Below are positions 52,944 to 61,642 of a stretch of 64,000 bases of DNA, in pieces. Source of the DNA: a bacterium (lineage in GTDB: Bacteria > RBG-13-61-14 > DATKZS01); the NCBI GenBank assembly GCA_963674965.2, contig CAXXFL010000006.1:224001-288000 (forward strand), given 5' to 3'. The translations under genes were made by a program, and so were the position numbers. The notes beneath the pieces are model-generated. The model was not told the DNA's origin, made no database searches, and saw nothing but the letters and a program-made list of their open reading frames with translations. Each line of letters starts with the position of its first letter. Position 1 is the first letter of the stretch.

Positions 52944-53225
52944 TTACTTTCCTGTGGCTTGGGCGATGACGTGGTTCCAAAACGGGTTGGCGAAAATGAG
53001 AATCATCGAGACCACGAAACAGTAGATGGCCGTTGACTCGATCATCGCCAGGCCCACGAACAAGGTCCGAGTTATGGTAGCGGAGGCATCAGGCTGCTGG
53101 GCCAACGAACTCAGTGCCGTTGCGACCGCCTTCCCTTCCGCCAGCGCAGGCCCCATAGTGCCAAAACCGGTGGTGATGCCGGCGATGACAATCGATGCCA
53201 CCGCGATAATAGTCATGTTATCCAT
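52944..53225 (-). CDS. atpE: N-ATPase c subunit
   Basis: PALAEG, QQP loop, ESTAIY. Confidence 0.93.
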   Translation of the reverse strand: MDNMTIIAVASIVIAGITTGFGTMGPALAEGKAVATALSSLAQQPDASATITRTLFVGLAMIESTAIYCFVVSMILIFANPFWNHVIAQATGK

Positions 53226-53285
53226 AGTATCTCCTATGATGGTTGTCTACCCAACCTTTTAAATTAGCTGAATTATTTTACAAAC

Positions 53286-54302
53286 TCAGCCTTTCGCTAT
53301 TACTCCGTTCGGGAAGTCCTCCCAAATCAAGTTTTCCTGTAAAGTGATGTAAATGATCTTCAAAAATTTGCGAGCCAGTGCGATGATGGCCTTGCCCGCG
53401 CCGCGCCTGGCCTTGATACGCTCGTAGAAGCTCGACAAATAAGGGCTGTAACGCTTGGCGATGAGGGCGCATTGGACCAGGGTAGTGCGGCCGAGTTTGT
53501 TGCCCCGCTTCGTGATCCGGCCCGAGCGGCTGGTCTCGTTCGAGTTGCTAACCCGGGGGACGATGCCGAAGTAGGAGGCCAGCTTGCCCTCGTCGGGGAA
53601 GTCCTTGACGTCAACGATCACCGACAAAAGTATGGCCGAGCCAAGGTCCCCGATACCCTTTATGCTCTTCAAATTCTTGTGACCGGGAAGCTGATTGCCC
53701 GAGTCCTTGATGGCGGCCTCAAGCTCCTTGACCCCGGCGTTCAAGCCCCGAATCTGCTCCACCAGGACGCGGACCTCGGTCTTGACCATGGGGTCGAAAG
53801 GTATCTCCTGCACCGTCTCAAGGCCCTTCTCGCTGGAAAGATATTCCTTCTTCAGGTTGATGCCGTGGGCCGAGCAGATGTTGTTGATCTTGTTCTTCAA
53901 GGCCGTGCGAAGCTTCACCAGCTTGTCCCGGCTTTGAGTGAGGCTTTTAACCTGAGCGTGTTCCTTGTTCGGCATCCTCACCTCCGGCAAAAGGCCCTTG
54001 GACAAAAACAGGGCAAGGCGTCTGGCGTCGTTGCCGTCCGTTTTGTTGACCGACTCGCTGATGACCTTGAACTGGCGAGGGTTGACAACCACGACGCGGG
54101 AAACGAGGCCGCGAACGGCGTCGTAAAAAAGGCGGACGTTGCCCGTGACCTCAACCGCGATCTCGTCGGACTCGCGAAGCGTCGAGCAAAACTTCTCCAA
54201 ATCCTCGAGACGCCAGTCCTTGAGATAGTTCCGTCCGTTCTCGGCCAGGACGCAAGAGGTGAAACAATTCCTGTGCAGATCGATTCCAATGTACCTTCCC
54301 AT
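53286..54302 (-). CDS. IS110 DEDD recombinase/transposase
   Basis: GIDLH, AVEVTG, KTDGNDA, SIKGIG, YFGIVPRVSNS, ITKRGN, IALARK. Confidence 0.93.
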   Translation of the reverse strand: MGRYIGIDLHRNCFTSCVLAENGRNYLKDWRLEDLEKFCSTLRESDEIAVEVTGNVRLFYDAVRGLVSRVVVVNPRQFKVISESVNKTDGNDARRLALFLSKGLLPEVRMPNKEHAQVKSLTQSRDKLVKLRTALKNKINNICSAHGINLKKEYLSSEKGLETVQEIPFDPMVKTEVRVLVEQIRGLNAGVKELEAAIKDSGNQLPGHKNLKSIKGIGDLGSAILLSVIVDVKDFPDEGKLASYFGIVPRVSNSNETSRSGRITKRGNKLGRTTLVQCALIAKRYSPYLSSFYERIKARRGAGKAIIALARKFLKIIYITLQENLIWEDFPNGVIAKG

Positions 54303-54314
54303 TTCCTTACTCCT

Positions 54315-54535
54315 CCCTAGAAATAAATTTGATCTAAGGTCGGAGTAGACACGCTTTGAGGGGCCGCCAAACTCCTATACAAGGTCTAGCCTTACGGTGG
54401 CGCTCCAGTCGCGGGGCTGACTAATCTCCTTTACGAGGTCATAAGCCTCACGAAAACGATCCAGCCCACGACCCGCCTACTCCAATAGATCATTCCTAAC
54501 CTAGTTGAAGTATTTACCACCTCAAAACTCTTCAT
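54315..54535 (-). ncRNA. Predicted bridge RNA of IS110 copy 1
   Basis: Nested stems GGAGTAGGC/GTCTACTCC, GTCGTGGGCTG/CAGCCCCGCGAC, GAGG/CCTC, AAGG/CCTT; carries target match AAAGGAGAT (54424-54432) and donor match ATAGGAG (54372-54378). Ends approximate. Confidence 0.7.
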
Positions 54536-54563
54536 TCATACCATCTCCTTTTTATGTCTGGGT

Positions 54564-54873
54564 TCATGCCTCAATGTTTTCCTCGGGTTCAGGCTCGGGC
54601 TTACGGACTCGCGTGGCGGCCGCGATATAAACCGCTGTCAGAATACTGAAAATGTAGGCCTGAACCATGCCGGTGAGCAGACCGAGCGCGGTCATGATGA
54701 TCGGAAAAATATAGGGCACAATTGTGAGTAGAATACCGATAATCATGGCGCCGCTCATCATGTTTCCGAACAGACGGATGGCCAGGGCCAGCGTGCGCGA
54801 AAGTTCGCTGATGATGTTAAACGGCAGCATGATGAACGTCGGCTTCACATAGGACTGGAGGTAGTCGCCCAAA
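54564..54873 (-). pseudogene. atpB: N-ATPase a subunit, 5'-truncated
   Basis: Only about 100 C-terminal residues remain (LPFNIISELSRTLALAIRLFGN...VQAYIF), directly abutting the pgm stop. Confidence 0.85.
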
Positions 54874-54886
54874 CGCATGTTTGGGT

Positions 54887-56569
54887 TCAATCATGTTTCT
54901 TCCTCAAGCCATTTCCCGGCGGCGCATCCTGCGCAAGAGCGTCGTCGACAATCGTCTGGGCTTCCGAAAGGATGCGGCGCAGATGATCCGCTCCCCGGAA
55001 GCTCTCTCCGTAAATCTTGTAGATGTTCTCGGTCCCGGACGGACGCGCCGCGAACCAGCCGTTATCGGACACCACCTTCAACCCGCCAATCGCCGCTCCG
55101 TTGCCGGGCGCGTTGGTGAGGACCGCCAGGATTTTTTCGCCCGCCAGATCGCTCTGCTTAACCTGCTGTGGTGAGAGTTTCGCCAACGTTTTCTTTTGCT
55201 CCGGAGTGGCTGGCGCCTCAACGCGGTCATAGGCTGGCTCACCGAACTCGCACGTGAGTTCGTGGTAGATTTCGCCGGGATCGCGGCCCATCCGGGCGGT
55301 AATCTCCGCAGCCAGCAAAGCCGGGATAATCCCATCTTTGTCCGTCGTCCAGACTCCGCCATCCAACCGCAGGAAGGACGCGCCCGCGCTCTCTTCGCCT
55401 CCAAAACCGAGCGAGCCGTCCAGCAAGCCATCCACAAACCACTTGAATCCGACCGGCGTCTCGTGGAGCTTCCGGCCCAACTTCGCGGTGACCCGATCAA
55501 TCATCTGGCTGCTCACCACCGTCTTGCCGACCGCCGCTTTCTGGGACCACTTCGGTCGGTGCTGGAAGAGGTAGAAAATGGTGGCGGCCAGGTAATGATT
55601 GGGCGGCATCAATCCCGCGCTGCGGGTGACGATTCCGTGACGGTCGGCGTCCGTATCGCAGGCAAAGGCGATCTCGAACCGGTCCTTCAGGCCAATTAAC
55701 CTCTGCATCGCATAGGGGGATGAAGGGTCCATGCGGATCTGACCATCCCAATCCACCGTCATGAAACGAAAGGTCGGGTCAACGGCCTCGTTGACGACTG
55801 TGAGGTTCAAACCGTAGCGCTCGGCAATCTGCCCCCAGTAATGGACCCCGGCGCCGCCGAGCGGATCAACCCCCAGGCTGATCTTCGCGCCGCGAATGGC
55901 GTCCATGTCCAGCACGTTCTCGAGATCGGCCACGTAGGCATTGAGATAGTCGTGACGGTGCGTCGTGCCCGCGCGGAGCGCTTTTTCCAGAGCCATACGT
56001 TTTACGCCCGCAAGCCCCTGCTCGATAAACTCGTTGGCCTTGGCCTCGATCCAACCAGTGACGGAGGAATCCGCCGGCCCGCCATGGGGCGGATTGTATT
56101 TGAACCCGCCGTCGGGTGGCGGATTGTGCGACGGGGTGATAACGATGCCGTCGGAGAGGCCGGTCTTGCGTCCACGGTTGTATGTGAGAATTGCGTGGGA
56201 AACGGCAGGGGTTGGGGTATATTCATCCCCCTCTGAGATCATGACTTCGACCCCGTTTGCCGCCAGCACCTCAAGCGCGCTGGCAAAAGCCGGCACGGAA
56301 AGGGCATGAGTGTCCAGGCCAAGGAACAACGGGCCGTCGATCTTTTTCTGCTCCCGGTACAGACAAATGGCCTGACTGATGGCGAGAATATGCCATTTAT
56401 TGAAAGCCTTGTCGAAGGCGGAACCGCGATGTCCCGAGGTGCCGAAGGCAACCCGTTGCGCCGGCGCTGAAGGGTCAGGCTCCTCCGTGTAATAGGCCGT
56501 GACGAGTCTGGGCACATCCACCAGCATTGATACTTCGGCCGGCTTTCCGGCAAAAGGACTTACAGTCAT
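54887..56569 (-). CDS. pgm: Phosphoglucomutase (alpha-D-glucose-1,6-bisphosphate-dependent)
   Basis: [35 protein letters not shown]. Confidence 0.95.
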
Positions 56570-59739: not shown

Positions 59740-60228
59740 TTACCCGATGTTTGAGTCATGCGATCTCCTGCGCCGGGTCAAAGGTTGGGAGCCTGATTTC
59801 TGTCTTGGTTTTGCCTTCGGGGAATTATCTTTAAACCACTTTCGAACCTTCGCCGTGATCTGACGGTCCGTCATCTTGTCAACGGTTTCAACGCCCACGA
59901 TGCGGTCGTCAAGATTGTTAGTTTCGAGACGTTTGCGCAGTTCGTCTTTTGCCTCGCCAGGACCGAATATCAGGATTGCCTCCGAATTGCTAATACTCGC
60001 GATTACGGCATCGTAGAAAATGTTGAGCTCTCCCTCAAATTTTCTCTGGCGGCTATCGTCCTCCGGCACTAGCTGTGATTCATAGGGACCCTCTAGAGGC
60101 GAATCACCGGAACGACGGAGTTGTTTTTCAACCTTCGAGAGGATCAGCCTCACCTCTTCCCCTTGATCCGTAAGCGCCACTATTCTGGCCTTCTTGTGGT
60201 CAATCCATAGACCCACTTTGGTTCTCAT
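59740..60228 (-). CDS. Host-attachment/baeRF (eRF1 domain 2-like) protein
   Basis: GLWIDHKKA, ILIFGPGEAK, DKMTDRQ; ATG 60228 lies 5 nt after AGGAGA. Confidence 0.7.
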   Translation of the reverse strand: MRTKVGLWIDHKKARIVALTDQGEEVRLILSKVEKQLRRSGDSPLEGPYESQLVPEDDSRQRKFEGELNIFYDAVIASISNSEAILIFGPGEAKDELRKRLETNNLDDRIVGVETVDKMTDRQITAKVRKWFKDNSPKAKPRQKSGSQPLTRRRRSHDSNIG

Positions 60229-60289
60229 CAATCTCTCCTATGATGGTTGTCTACCCAACCTTTTAAATTAGCTGAATTATTTTACAAAC

Positions 60290-61306
60290 TCAGCCTTTCG
60301 CTATTACTCCGTTCGGGAAGTCCTCCCAAATCAAGTTTTCCTGTAAAGTGATGTAAATGATCTTCAAAAATTTGCGAGCCAGCGCGATGATGGCCTTGCC
60401 CGCGCCGCGCCTGGCCTTGATACGCTCGTAGAAGCTCGACAAATAAGGGCTGTAACGCTTGGCGATGAGGGCGCATTGGACCAGGGTAGTGCGGCCGAGT
60501 TTGTTGCCCCGCTTCGTGATCCGGCCCGAGCGGCTGGTCTCGTTCGAGTTGCTAACCCGGGGGACGATGCCGAAGTAGGAGGCCAGCTTGCCCTCGTCGG
60601 GGAAGTCCTTGACGTCAACGATCACCGACAAAAGTATGGCCGAGCCAAGGTCCCCGATACCCTTTATGCTCTTCAAATTCTTGTGACCGGGAAGCTGATT
60701 GCCCGAGTCCTTGATGGCGGCCTCAAGCTCCTTGACCCCGGCGTTCAAGCCCCGAATCTGCTCCACCAGGACGCGGACCTCGGTCTTGACCATGGGGTCG
60801 AAAGGTATCTCCTGCACCGTCTCAAGGCCCTTCTCGCTGGAAAGATATTCCTTCTTCAGGTTGATGCCGTGGGCCGAGCAGATGTTGTTGATCTTGTTCT
60901 TCAAGGCCGTGCGAAGCTTCACCAGCTTGTCCCGGCTTTGAGTGAGGCTTTTAACCTGAGCGTGTTCCTTGTTCGGCATCCTCACCTCCGGCAAAAGGCC
61001 CTTGGACAAAAACAGGGCAAGGCGTCTGGCGTCGTTGCCGTCCGTTTTGTTGACCGACTCGCTGATGACCTTGAACTGGCGAGGGTTGACAACCACGACG
61101 CGGGAAACGAGGCCGCGAACGGCGTCGTAAAAAAGGCGGACGTTGCCCGTGACCTCAACCGCGATCTCGTCGGACTCGCGAAGCGTCGAGCAAAACTTCT
61201 CCAAATCCTCGAGACGCCAGTCCTTGAGATAGTTCCGTCCGTTCTCGGCCAGGACGCAAGAGGTGAAACAATTCCTGTGCAGATCGATTCCAATGTACCT
61301 TCCCAT
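60290..61306 (-). CDS. IS110 DEDD recombinase/transposase
   Basis: Protein identical to 53286-54302. Confidence 0.93.
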   Translation of the reverse strand: MGRYIGIDLHRNCFTSCVLAENGRNYLKDWRLEDLEKFCSTLRESDEIAVEVTGNVRLFYDAVRGLVSRVVVVNPRQFKVISESVNKTDGNDARRLALFLSKGLLPEVRMPNKEHAQVKSLTQSRDKLVKLRTALKNKINNICSAHGINLKKEYLSSEKGLETVQEIPFDPMVKTEVRVLVEQIRGLNAGVKELEAAIKDSGNQLPGHKNLKSIKGIGDLGSAILLSVIVDVKDFPDEGKLASYFGIVPRVSNSNETSRSGRITKRGNKLGRTTLVQCALIAKRYSPYLSSFYERIKARRGAGKAIIALARKFLKIIYITLQENLIWEDFPNGVIAKG

Positions 61307-61318
61307 TTCCTTACTCCT

Positions 61319-61539
61319 CCCTAGAAATAAATTTGATCTAAGGTCGGAGTAGACACGCTTTGAGGGGCCGCCAAACTCCTATACAAGGTCTAGCCTTACG
61401 GTGGCGCTCCAGTCGCGGGGCTGACTAATCTCCTTTACGAGGTCATAAGCCTCACGAAAACGATCCAGCCCACGACCCGCCTACTCCAATAGATCATTCC
61501 TAACCTAGTTGAAGTATTTACCACCTCAAAACTCTTCAT
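61319..61539 (-). ncRNA. Predicted bridge RNA of IS110 copy 2
   Basis: Same sequence as copy 1; target guide 61428-61436, donor guide 61376-61382. Confidence 0.7.
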
Positions 61540-61642
61540 TCATACCATCTCCTTTGTCTATTTGCTTATCCTCTGGCAGCGCCAACATTTCGCGTCGCGC
61601 CGGCCGCCAACGAACCGGCGTCATAAGTTCTGAAACTCAGGC

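Follow-up and report, generated by a model that had tools for sequence, protein, structure and literature searches.

Background

IS621, an insertion sequence of the IS110 family, makes its bridge RNA from the left end of the element, and its left target ends beside that left end (PMC11208160; this and the further accounts cited by accession are drawn on in part). The target-binding loop of that RNA comprises a stem, a linker (C47-U49), the left target guide (LTG, A50-U58), U59, the inner hairpin and a second linker (G72-U73); the LTG lies 5' of the hairpin and, as it pairs with the bottom strand, shares its sequence with the top strand. On the 3' side of the hairpin lies the right target guide (RTG, G77-G80, which can be lengthened from position 74); its partner is the top strand, where G80 faces C8 of the CT core, and after it come the handshake guide A81 U82 and a linker, U83-U86 (Hiraizumi et al. 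2024, PMC11208158). In IS1111-type elements the non-coding region is found downstream, and the segment complementary to the top strand stands 5' of the bottom-strand one; ISEc21, of the IS110 type, has an upstream non-coding region and the reverse guide order, and exceptions to the position of the region exist, ISMtsp17 among them (Siddiquee et al. 2024, PMC11187229). Here we analyze an IS110-family element in a stretch of bacterial DNA of 64,000 nucleotides (nt), called the window below (GenBank assembly GCA_963674965.2, contig CAXXFL010000006.1, positions 224,001 to 288,000), in which the 243-nt leader upstream of the recombinase gene very probably encodes a bridge (seek) RNA and is part of a system of an already known kind.

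That IS110-family elements can target ribosome-binding sites is already known from the IS900 group of mycobacteria, whose members use a consensus target in one orientation and come to lie between the ribosome-binding site and the start codon. The opposite-strand open reading frame of IS900 has no ribosome-binding site and start codon of its own (PMC8141618), an arrangement compatible with a transposase directed against the target gene.

The reading of the leader as a bridge RNA draws on its structure, on the covariation of guide and target, on the preference for one kind of insertion site and on the boundaries of the element, each of them established by comparing the sequences of copies and relatives; the strands with which the guides would pair are assigned by analogy with the solved systems, and the position of cleavage is a proposal. 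The element, its gene (lengths in amino acids, aa, and base pairs, bp) and the two halves of its target are the following, in coordinates of the window:

53231-54544, minus strand: insertion sequence copy 1 (1314 bp), between an ATP-synthase subunit a fragment and the subunit c gene
60235-61548, minus strand: insertion sequence copy 2 (1314 bp), with one A/G difference at element position 1166, in the recombinase gene
53286-54302, minus strand: recombinase gene (338 aa), with a DEDD RuvC-like domain and a Tnp domain
54545-54551, minus strand: left target half, AAAGGAG, the Shine-Dalgarno sequence of subunit c, now split from its gene (from flank comparison)
53223-53230, minus strand: right target half, the spacer ATACT and the start codon of subunit c (ATG at 53225-53223; from reading the flank)

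Predicted guide segments and the insertion site

The leader is predicted to contain two look-alike internal loops, of which the first (loop 1) would bind the target and the second (loop 2) the donor, i.e. the ends of the element itself. Their candidate guides are:

54426-54432, minus strand: 3'-side target guide AAAGGAG, with the sequence of the upstream flank; would pair with 5'-CTCCTTT-3' (CT core plus 5 nt)
54424-54425, minus strand: AU, placed as the handshake guide A81 U82 is in IS621, equal to the first two bases of the element (from conservation only)
54451-54461, minus strand: 5'-side strand of the target loop, GAUCGUUUUCG (with a further U at 54450), a G/U-rich candidate guide for core, spacer and start codon on the sense strand
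54372-54378, minus strand: 3'-side donor guide AUAGGAG, equal to the last 7 bases of the element (right end ...ATCATAGGAG)
54394-54398, minus strand: 5'-side donor guide ACCGU, predicted to pair with the first element bases ATGGT, with one G-T pair

From about 80 relatives, 78 of 90 loci could be parsed for guide and flank (the other 12, including the truncated L032 and L079, were left out owing to pattern failure or lack of a flank), and these yield 76 distinct flank/guide pairs. The guide on the 3' strand of loop 1 is identical to the 7 nt upstream of the element in 69 of the 76 pairs, and differs from them by one base in 5 and by two bases in 2. Guides other than AAAGGAG occur in 22 pairs, 19 of which match their own flank exactly (for example CAAGGAG, TAAGGAG, GAAGGAG, GTAGGAG, AGAGGAG, TGAGGAG, AAGGGAG, AAAGCAG and TATCCAG), so that covariation of guide and flank among homologues, named beforehand as a check in an earlier note that proposed the bridge RNA from the letters of the window, is indeed found. 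The mismatches add up to 9, as compared with a mean of 57.2 and a minimum of 39 in shuffled pairs, and none of 10000 shuffles reached 9. The terminal AG is constant in all parsed guides, and the guide with the sequence of the upstream flank stands on the 3' side of the loop in 78 of the 78 parsed loci; outside this set, L075 has TAACCAG both as guide and as flank, as judged by eye. The AU that follows the guide accompanies the element start AT in 74 of the 76 pairs, without covariation; its identity to the first two element bases is what the handshake model expects after strand exchange, and by analogy it may act as a handshake guide.

The 5' strand of loop 1 is 10–12 nt long in the relatives, highly variable, G/U-rich and often starts with CAU. 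It was scored antiparallel to "AG + downstream flank", with G-U pairs allowed and a shift of 0–2, in 66 distinct pairs; five loci were left out, three of them because the hairpin could not be placed (L013, L084 and L086) and two because their flank is another element end. The mean number of paired positions is 7.42, as compared with 6.72 for the flanks of other elements, 6.46 for the shuffled strand and 6.29 for the reversed strand, and the summed score of 490 (445 +/- 8.4 in permuted sets) was reached in none of 5000 permutations. The strongest pairing is seen in L033 (11 of 11 positions), L027 (10 of 10) and L016 (10 of 11), and one element pairs at 9, 9, 10 and 9 of 11 positions at four of its five sites (L066-L069), where its strand has a final CU that faces the AG core and a CAU that faces the start codon. 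The strand of the window element, GAUCGUUUUCGU, is paired at 9 of 11 positions in L004, at 8 of 11 in L008 and L009 and at 8 of 10 in L003; the nine occupied sites score 7.11, all free sites 6.20 (P = 0.020). These comparisons suggest that the 5' strand of loop 1 is a real but deliberately loose guide, significant across the family and weaker than the 3' guide.

In loop 2, the 3' strand AUAGGAG and the right end of the element are invariant in the family, with the exception of two loci. The proposal that this motif matches the circle junction agrees with its identity to the last 7 element bases and with two junctions described below, one from a tandem pair and one from a run X3 contig. The 5' strand of loop 2 reads (C/U)C(A/G)U directly before the hairpin and could pair with the first four bases of the element; the fourth guide position (C/U) is C where the element starts with ATGG and U where it starts with ATGA, and 51 of 55 leaders are compatible with such pairing.

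Predicted structure of the leader RNA

Minimum free energy (MFE) folding of the 243-nt leader gives -92.9 kcal/mol (z = -4.64; 0 of 200 shuffles equalled it) and an architecture in which a 5' hairpin is followed by an outer stem around the two twin internal loops:

54343-54522, minus strand: structured core of the presumed bridge RNA, with the 5' arm of a long-range helix at one end and the outer stem's 3' arm at the other (the ends of a transcript are not implied)
54483-54512, minus strand: 5' stem-loop (MFE; the part in the family consensus is 54483-54498), helix 2
54475-54482, minus strand: 5' arm of the outer stem, GAGUAGGC (= GAGTAGGC), helix 3
54343-54350, minus strand: 3' arm of the outer stem, GUCUACUC (= GTCTACTC), helix 3
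54409-54471, minus strand: target-binding loop, with closing stem 54471-54462/54419-54409, 5' strand, inner hairpin 54450-54434 and 3' strand
54365-54402, minus strand: donor-binding loop, with closing stem 54402-54398/54369-54365 and inner hairpin 54394-54380

One named consensus structure was tested on 55 distinct homologous leaders (alignment A2). It pairs 90.9% of the cells, versus 32–48% in controls slid by 1–3 columns, and double changes occur at 24 of the 53 consensus pairs; 0 of 500 shuffles reached any of five measures. The best-supported helices are the 5' hairpin (helix 2; 92.1% paired, 5 of 6 pairs double-changed), the outer stem (helix 3; 8 pairs, 99.5% paired, 2 of them double-changed from U-A to C-G), the stem and hairpin of loop 1 (helices 4 and 5; 98.0% and 93.8% paired, with 4 and 1 pairs double-changed) and the hairpin of loop 2 (helix 7; 96.8% paired, double changes at 6 of 8 pairs), while the stem of loop 2 (helix 6) is paired in 98.2%. 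The G-U pairs, for instance those of the loop 2 stem, are compatible with the sense strand only. Each of the twin modules opens with a CGU lead-in, after which come a 4-bp hairpin and a GU linker; the letters that follow are AAAGGAG-AU in module 1 and AUAGGAG-UU in module 2. The earlier note had described these modules and an outer stem enclosing both, and all the strings that it quoted are present on the minus strand where it had placed them: module 1 at 54453-54424 (AAAGGAG at 54432-54426, AT at 54425-54424), module 2 at 54397-54370 (ATAGGAG at 54378-54372) and the enclosing stem at 54482-54475/54350-54343, the one that is paired in 99.5% in the family.

Most relatives share in addition a long-range helix, GGCGG/CCGCC (82% paired, 4 pairs double-changed), with one arm ahead of the 5' hairpin and the other after loop 2, before the 3' arm of the outer stem (columns 30-35/242-247 of alignment A2, about 54522-54517/54363-54359 in the window). 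Because it crosses the outer stem, it would form a pseudoknot or belong to an alternative fold. A candidate hairpin beside the recombinase start (helix 8) was paired in only 45% on the alignment and was dropped. It was also observed that the right end of the element carries, at 53244-53256, the string GGGTAGACAA (GGAGTAGACAA in relatives), which is nearly identical to the 5' arm of the outer stem and its continuation (54475-54484; GGAGTAGGC here, GGAGTAGACAGG in relatives); this right-end copy overlaps a -35-like hexamer.

Copies, boundaries and the joined form

The limits of copy 1 were obtained from the flanks of 10 full copies in the genome, two of them within the window; a left-end remnant of about 40 nt was found besides. 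Between the 10 copies there is at most a single base of difference, within the recombinase gene. Copy 1 starts with ATGGTATGAAT at 54544 and ends with CCATCATAGGAG at 53231, its non-coding ends measuring 243 nt upstream and 54 nt downstream of the recombinase gene; its flanks are ...AAAAAGGAG on the left and ATACTATGG on the right, and those of copy 2 are ...ACAAAGGAG and AGATTGATG. AGGAG is present at both junctions, the left and the right, and the exact crossover point, which lies somewhere within it, is therefore unreadable; the length of 1314 bp assigns one copy of the common AGGAG to the right end.

Contig 7 carries two copies head to tail (L006/L010; 6724-9359), with a single AGGAG common to both. 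Their right-end/left-end junction contains one AGGAG and no AAAGGAG, giving a unit of 1314 bp, and a 445-nt contig of run X3 has an identical junction and agrees with the same unit length. Since both junctions hold a single AGGAG, the 7-mer upstream of the element is part of the target and not of the element. Comparison with these junctions shows that the joined right-end/left-end form exists as DNA; the reads behind the X3 contig are compatible with a circle and with a tandem copy alike. The tandem pair looks like an insertion into the rebuilt, ribosome-binding-site-like right end of the older copy, ATAGGAG, which is one mismatch away from the guide (row L010). Tandem copies would thus arise because the rebuilt site is itself a near-target.

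The solo left-end remnant (L011; contig 6, about 1074153-1074200) comprises about 41 nt directly after AAAGGAG, and its upstream flank is similar to the one at the tandem pair of contig 7, with differences; it is taken to be a truncated copy in a duplicated region. A joint between 53235 and 54577 in run X1 (depth 6.19, side 24 letters) was set aside as possibly derived from another organism.

Insertion at ribosome-binding sites

Apart from the copy that stands behind another one, every full copy (nine in all) has AAAGGAG as left flank, and in 8 of the 9 an ATG lies 5–9 nt after the right end. At copy 1, the old AAAAGGAG stays at the left flank, while the right end of the element provides CATAGGAG, after which come ATACT and the subunit c ATG, so that the new AGGAG stands at the original distance from the start codon. 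In a related organism (run X3 contig, sense strand) the site is uninterrupted and has a single AAAAGGAG, then directly ATACTATGG. An empty ATP-synthase site was not found in 40 other genomes, which gave 2 distant matches, none of the same family. The matches of module 1 to two targets, put at 9 nt and 8 nt in the earlier note, hold for the targets rebuilt in this way.

Among 77 distinct downstream flanks of the family, 57 have an ATG at +4 to +11, versus 9.3% of random 16-mers from the same loci, and owing to this enrichment we regard the whole family as homing to ribosome-binding sites, always co-directionally with the target gene. In the genome, AAAGGAG occurs at 2049 sites on both strands (about 608 expected from base composition); 10 of them precede a left end of the element, and 455 of the 2039 free sites have an ATG at +4 to +11, so the element uses a small part of the possible sites.

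Some further observations concern individual sites. In four loci (L015, L037, L042 and L059) the downstream flank is a GAGGAGGAG... repeat with neither spacer nor start codon; these are either insertions into purine repeats or a different type of site. A relative in a metagenome-assembled genome of the Pirellulales (L056), with a recombinase 64% identical, apparently occupies the same site as copy 2 (window 60219-61564): its flank reads ...AATAGACAAAGGAG and the downstream gene starts with MRT..., so either the insertion is old or the site has been hit repeatedly. Next to copy 1, the subunit a fragment (54564-54890, minus strand) encodes the 108 C-terminal aa (Pfam positions 114-216 of 217) and lies immediately next to the stop codon of the gene for a phosphoglucomutase (54887-56569); subunit a is encoded in full length at another place (contig 1:536337-536945), and the second ATP-synthase operon, that of the window, may be rearranged or decaying.

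The recombinase and its relatives

The recombinase matches PF01548 (DEDD_Tnp_IS110, E 2.5e-15) and PF02371 (Transposase_20, E 1.6e-21), both above the cut-off, as well as the NCBIfam model NF033542, "IS110 family RNA-guided transposase" (221.5 bits, cut-off 140). Its only relatives of solved structure are IS621 and ISCro4, which it matches in the C-terminal part only (E 6.6e-13). Among 8000 candidates scored, at least 4599 proteins are related to it at E <= 1e-20, and the best 120 are 67–85% identical, the window's own protein being 100%. The thousands of metagenomic relatives among them come mostly from contigs of 1.3–2 kb. A scan of genome contigs gave 80 loci with recombinases 56–71% identical, in Acidobacteriota, Planctomycetota, Hydrogenedentota, Desulfobacterota-like hosts, Lentisphaerota, Clostridia and others. 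In almost all of them the gene is preceded by the same leader, the left end is ATGGTATGAAT or ATGAGATGAAT and the right end ...ATCATAGGAG, and the guide RNA lies upstream of the recombinase gene at every locus where it was found. A tblastn search of plasmids returned IS5075/IS4321 and unnamed IS110-family genes at 23–29% identity, and one at 50%.

The genome contains a second IS110-family element, in 4 copies on contigs 2 and 6 (L095-L098), with a 361-aa recombinase, and further single genes of the family on contig 7 (513695-514687) and contig 6 (897284-898240). A search for the inner-hairpin motif near the other IS110-family genes found it only in the 4-copy element.

Proposed mechanism

In the mechanism that we propose, the bridge RNA would be co-transcribed with the recombinase mRNA, either from the joined right-end/left-end form or by read-through of host transcription. 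A promoter might be created at the junction of the joined form:

53244-53249, minus strand: TAGACA (TTGACA in many relatives), 17 nt before the TATGAA of the left end in the joined form; part of a possible junction promoter, found by eye

The TATGAA is preceded by TG; from these letters we infer that TAGACA/17 nt/TATGAA may serve as a promoter. Within loop 1, AAAGGAG occupies the slot of the IS621 RTG, with the same spacing and the same core and handshake letters, for which reason it should pair with 5'-CT-CCTTT-3', and this would place the CT core on the antisense strand with respect to the recombinase gene. The G/U-rich 5' strand would pair with the sense strand, along the core, the spacer and often the start codon. 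Within loop 2, AUAGGAG would pair with CTCCTAT of the right end and ACCGU with ATGGT of the left end. Strand exchange by the recombinase would take place at AG/CT, the dinucleotide with which the Shine-Dalgarno sequence closes, and the element would land behind the ribosome-binding site and ahead of the start codon, pointing the same way as the gene; its right end CATAGGAG would restore a ribosome-binding site at the old distance. By this analogy, the architecture of the loop appears to be conserved and its cargo reversed relative to the IS621 loop.

The family of the recombinase, the two loops built of covarying helices and a guide that changes with the insertion site all support the bridge-RNA reading, as the earlier note had advanced it. 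A number of points weigh against it or against its details. Transcription of the leader RNA is presumed from sequence, no RNA run having come up among the sequencing runs that contain it; a strict sigma-70 scan of the tandem junction and the window detected no junction promoter, and Rfam 15 searched at E <= 10 returned two sub-threshold chance matches and no bridge-RNA family. The strand assignments are made by analogy because the layout departs from the solved complexes of IS621 and ISCro4. Donor recognition shows as a match and not as covariation, since guide and right end are both invariant; the 5' donor guide has only 4–5 nt and no core pairing, and its covariation is weak, concerning one position and amounting essentially to a split between two clades. 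The dinucleotide that comes after AUAGGAG is variable and does not go along with the target flank (both bases agree in 11, one in 32 and none in 23 of 66 pairs), and because of this no handshake is claimed for loop 2. For the 5' target strand of copy 1, only 6 positions out of 10 are paired, and the score of 7.11 at the nine occupied sites is marginal when set against 6.39 at free sites with an ATG (resampling P = 0.044). The description of the right guides as weakly matching, given in the earlier note, therefore holds only in part: the pairing of the 5' strand of loop 1 is marginal within this genome and significant across the family (0 of 5000), and ACCGU can pair with the five first bases of the element, with one G-T pair.

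Alternative explanations

The twin motifs might instead be Shine-Dalgarno-like leader signals for translation of the recombinase or for ribosome binding, with the protein alone picking the site, seeing that AAAGGAG and AUAGGAG are good ribosome-binding sequences and that further hairpins lie beside the recombinase's own GGAGG. However, a translational signal is not expected to track the insertion site, and the motif of loop 1 tracks its flank even where it is unlike a Shine-Dalgarno sequence (TATCCAG in L076, AAAGCAG in L062 and, by eye, TAACCAG in L075), so we regard this explanation as very unlikely. The identity of guide and flank might also be an artefact of misplaced ends, with the upstream 7-mer being a terminal repeat carried by the element, an idea that could build on the AGGAG at both junctions and the unreadable crossover. 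Yet neither the tandem junction nor the X3 junction has an AAAGGAG between the ends (one AGGAG, unit of 1314), the uninterrupted spacer of the relative has one AAAGGAG with the right flank directly after it, and a start codon stands at ribosome-binding-site distance from the junction in 57 of 77 sites, which together make such an artefact extremely improbable.

A different question is to which branch of the family a bridge-RNA element of this kind belongs. It may be a member of the IS1111 type in which the guide RNA has changed sides, from downstream of the recombinase gene to upstream of it; its guide order would then be the ordinary IS1111 order and no new layout. We consider this a serious possibility, if somewhat short of an even chance. 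In the seekRNA of IS1111-type elements, as in the present one, the top-strand-complementary segment stands on the 5' side of its bottom-strand counterpart; the transposases of that type have 330–350 aa (338 aa here), and a few members have an upstream non-coding region, e.g. ISMtsp17 in ISfinder, for which the portion of that account drawn on reports no guide order (PMC11187229). The recombinase aligns with IS5075 over the full length (26% identity), and both are equally distant from IS621 (E 6.6e-13 for the recombinase, 1.4e-12 for IS5075), with similarity in the C-terminal part only. The second element of the genome has a downstream non-coding region, guides of the same sense and an almost identical inner hairpin, and its features fit a link to the IS1111 type. 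On the other hand, the subterminal inverted repeats of 7–17 bp typical of the IS1111 type are absent, the repeats that flank the junction having only 3–4 bp (CAT...ATG or TCAT...ATGA), and the pairwise identities among the collected IS110-family proteins, a set with three annotated loci and without IS110-type references, are all about 25%.

Significance

Bridge recombinases are under development as programmable tools for genome rearrangement, and the rules for their use come almost wholly from IS621 and its close relatives. If the bridge-RNA reading holds, the same loop architecture can be wired to its cargo in the opposite orientation, a long guide can occupy the 3' strand, and specificity can be split between a strict half, the Shine-Dalgarno sequence, and a wobble-degenerate half; the family in question is large, natural and spread over many phyla. 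The reading also accounts for an insertion sequence inside an operon, that of the ATP synthase, with the translation signal of the downstream gene kept. Under the third layout proposed at the close of the next section, co-orientation would let host transcription supply the guide RNA as well as the recombinase and yet continue into the downstream gene.

Comparison with known systems

The element resembles IS621 in having a recombinase with DEDD and Tnp domains, an upstream RNA with 5' hairpin, target loop and donor loop in this order, loops made of stem, strand, hairpin and strand, a CT core, and a 3' strand composed of a GU linker, 7 nt ending in AG, AU, a 4-nt linker and the stem (PMC11208160, PMC11208158). 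It differs from IS621 in that the guide with the upstream-flank sequence is on the 3' strand, as the earlier note had correctly observed of its top-strand-identical guides (the IS621 LTG, A50-U58, being 5' of the hairpin; PMC11208158), and in that the 3' guide has 7 nt instead of 4, extendable to 7. Other differences are the short 5' donor guide without core pairing, the outer stem around both loops with a long-range helix crossing it, and a protein likeness limited to the C-terminal part (E 6.6e-13).

With IS1111-type elements (ISEc11, ISKpn4, ISPa11) it shares the guide order and the length range of the transposase, and its joined form may likewise be a circle with abutted ends, whereas in those elements the RNA is downstream and the subterminal repeats are 7–17 bp long, as against an upstream RNA and repeats of 3–4 bp here (PMC11187229). 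ISEc21 is alike in its upstream non-coding region and in a short RNA that matches both strands of the linear target; it differs in that the top-strand match is 3' of the bottom-strand match, opposite to the order seen here (PMC11187229). Of the features that define the IS110 type narrowly, the upstream RNA and the lack of long subterminal repeats are thus present, and the IS621/ISEc21 guide order is not. The recombinase is co-directional with the target gene, in contrast to the arrangement suggested for IS900. The second IS110-family element of the same genome has guides of the same sense, an almost identical inner hairpin and a TTGACA near the right end, and differs in its downstream non-coding region, its 361-aa recombinase (the proteins are 26% identical) and its target, which is a repeated ...GCTATGGGTTAC... 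site and not a ribosome-binding site.

The combination of an upstream RNA, the IS1111 guide order and short repeats is not described in the portions drawn on of PMC11187229, PMC11208158 and the account of IS1111 by Durrant et al., whose supplements may hold cases, nor in section 2.4 of a preprint from 2026, a survey covering 32,190 predicted bridge RNAs. No prior description was found of bridge RNAs that target Shine-Dalgarno sequences, in literature covered partly by title and abstract and with supplements that may list such elements, nor of a guide RNA for IS900 in the portions of the literature examined. New here are the layout, the strict and loose reading of the two target halves, and homing to translation starts with repair of the ribosome-binding site. 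We propose, tentatively and with rather less than even confidence, that the family represents a third layout of RNA-guided IS110-family elements, in which the upstream RNA of the IS110 type and the junction and target orientation of the IS1111 type are coupled to translation-start homing. Such a family may be a link between the two types, being one inversion of the junction away from an IS621-like element and one move of the RNA gene away from an IS1111-like one.

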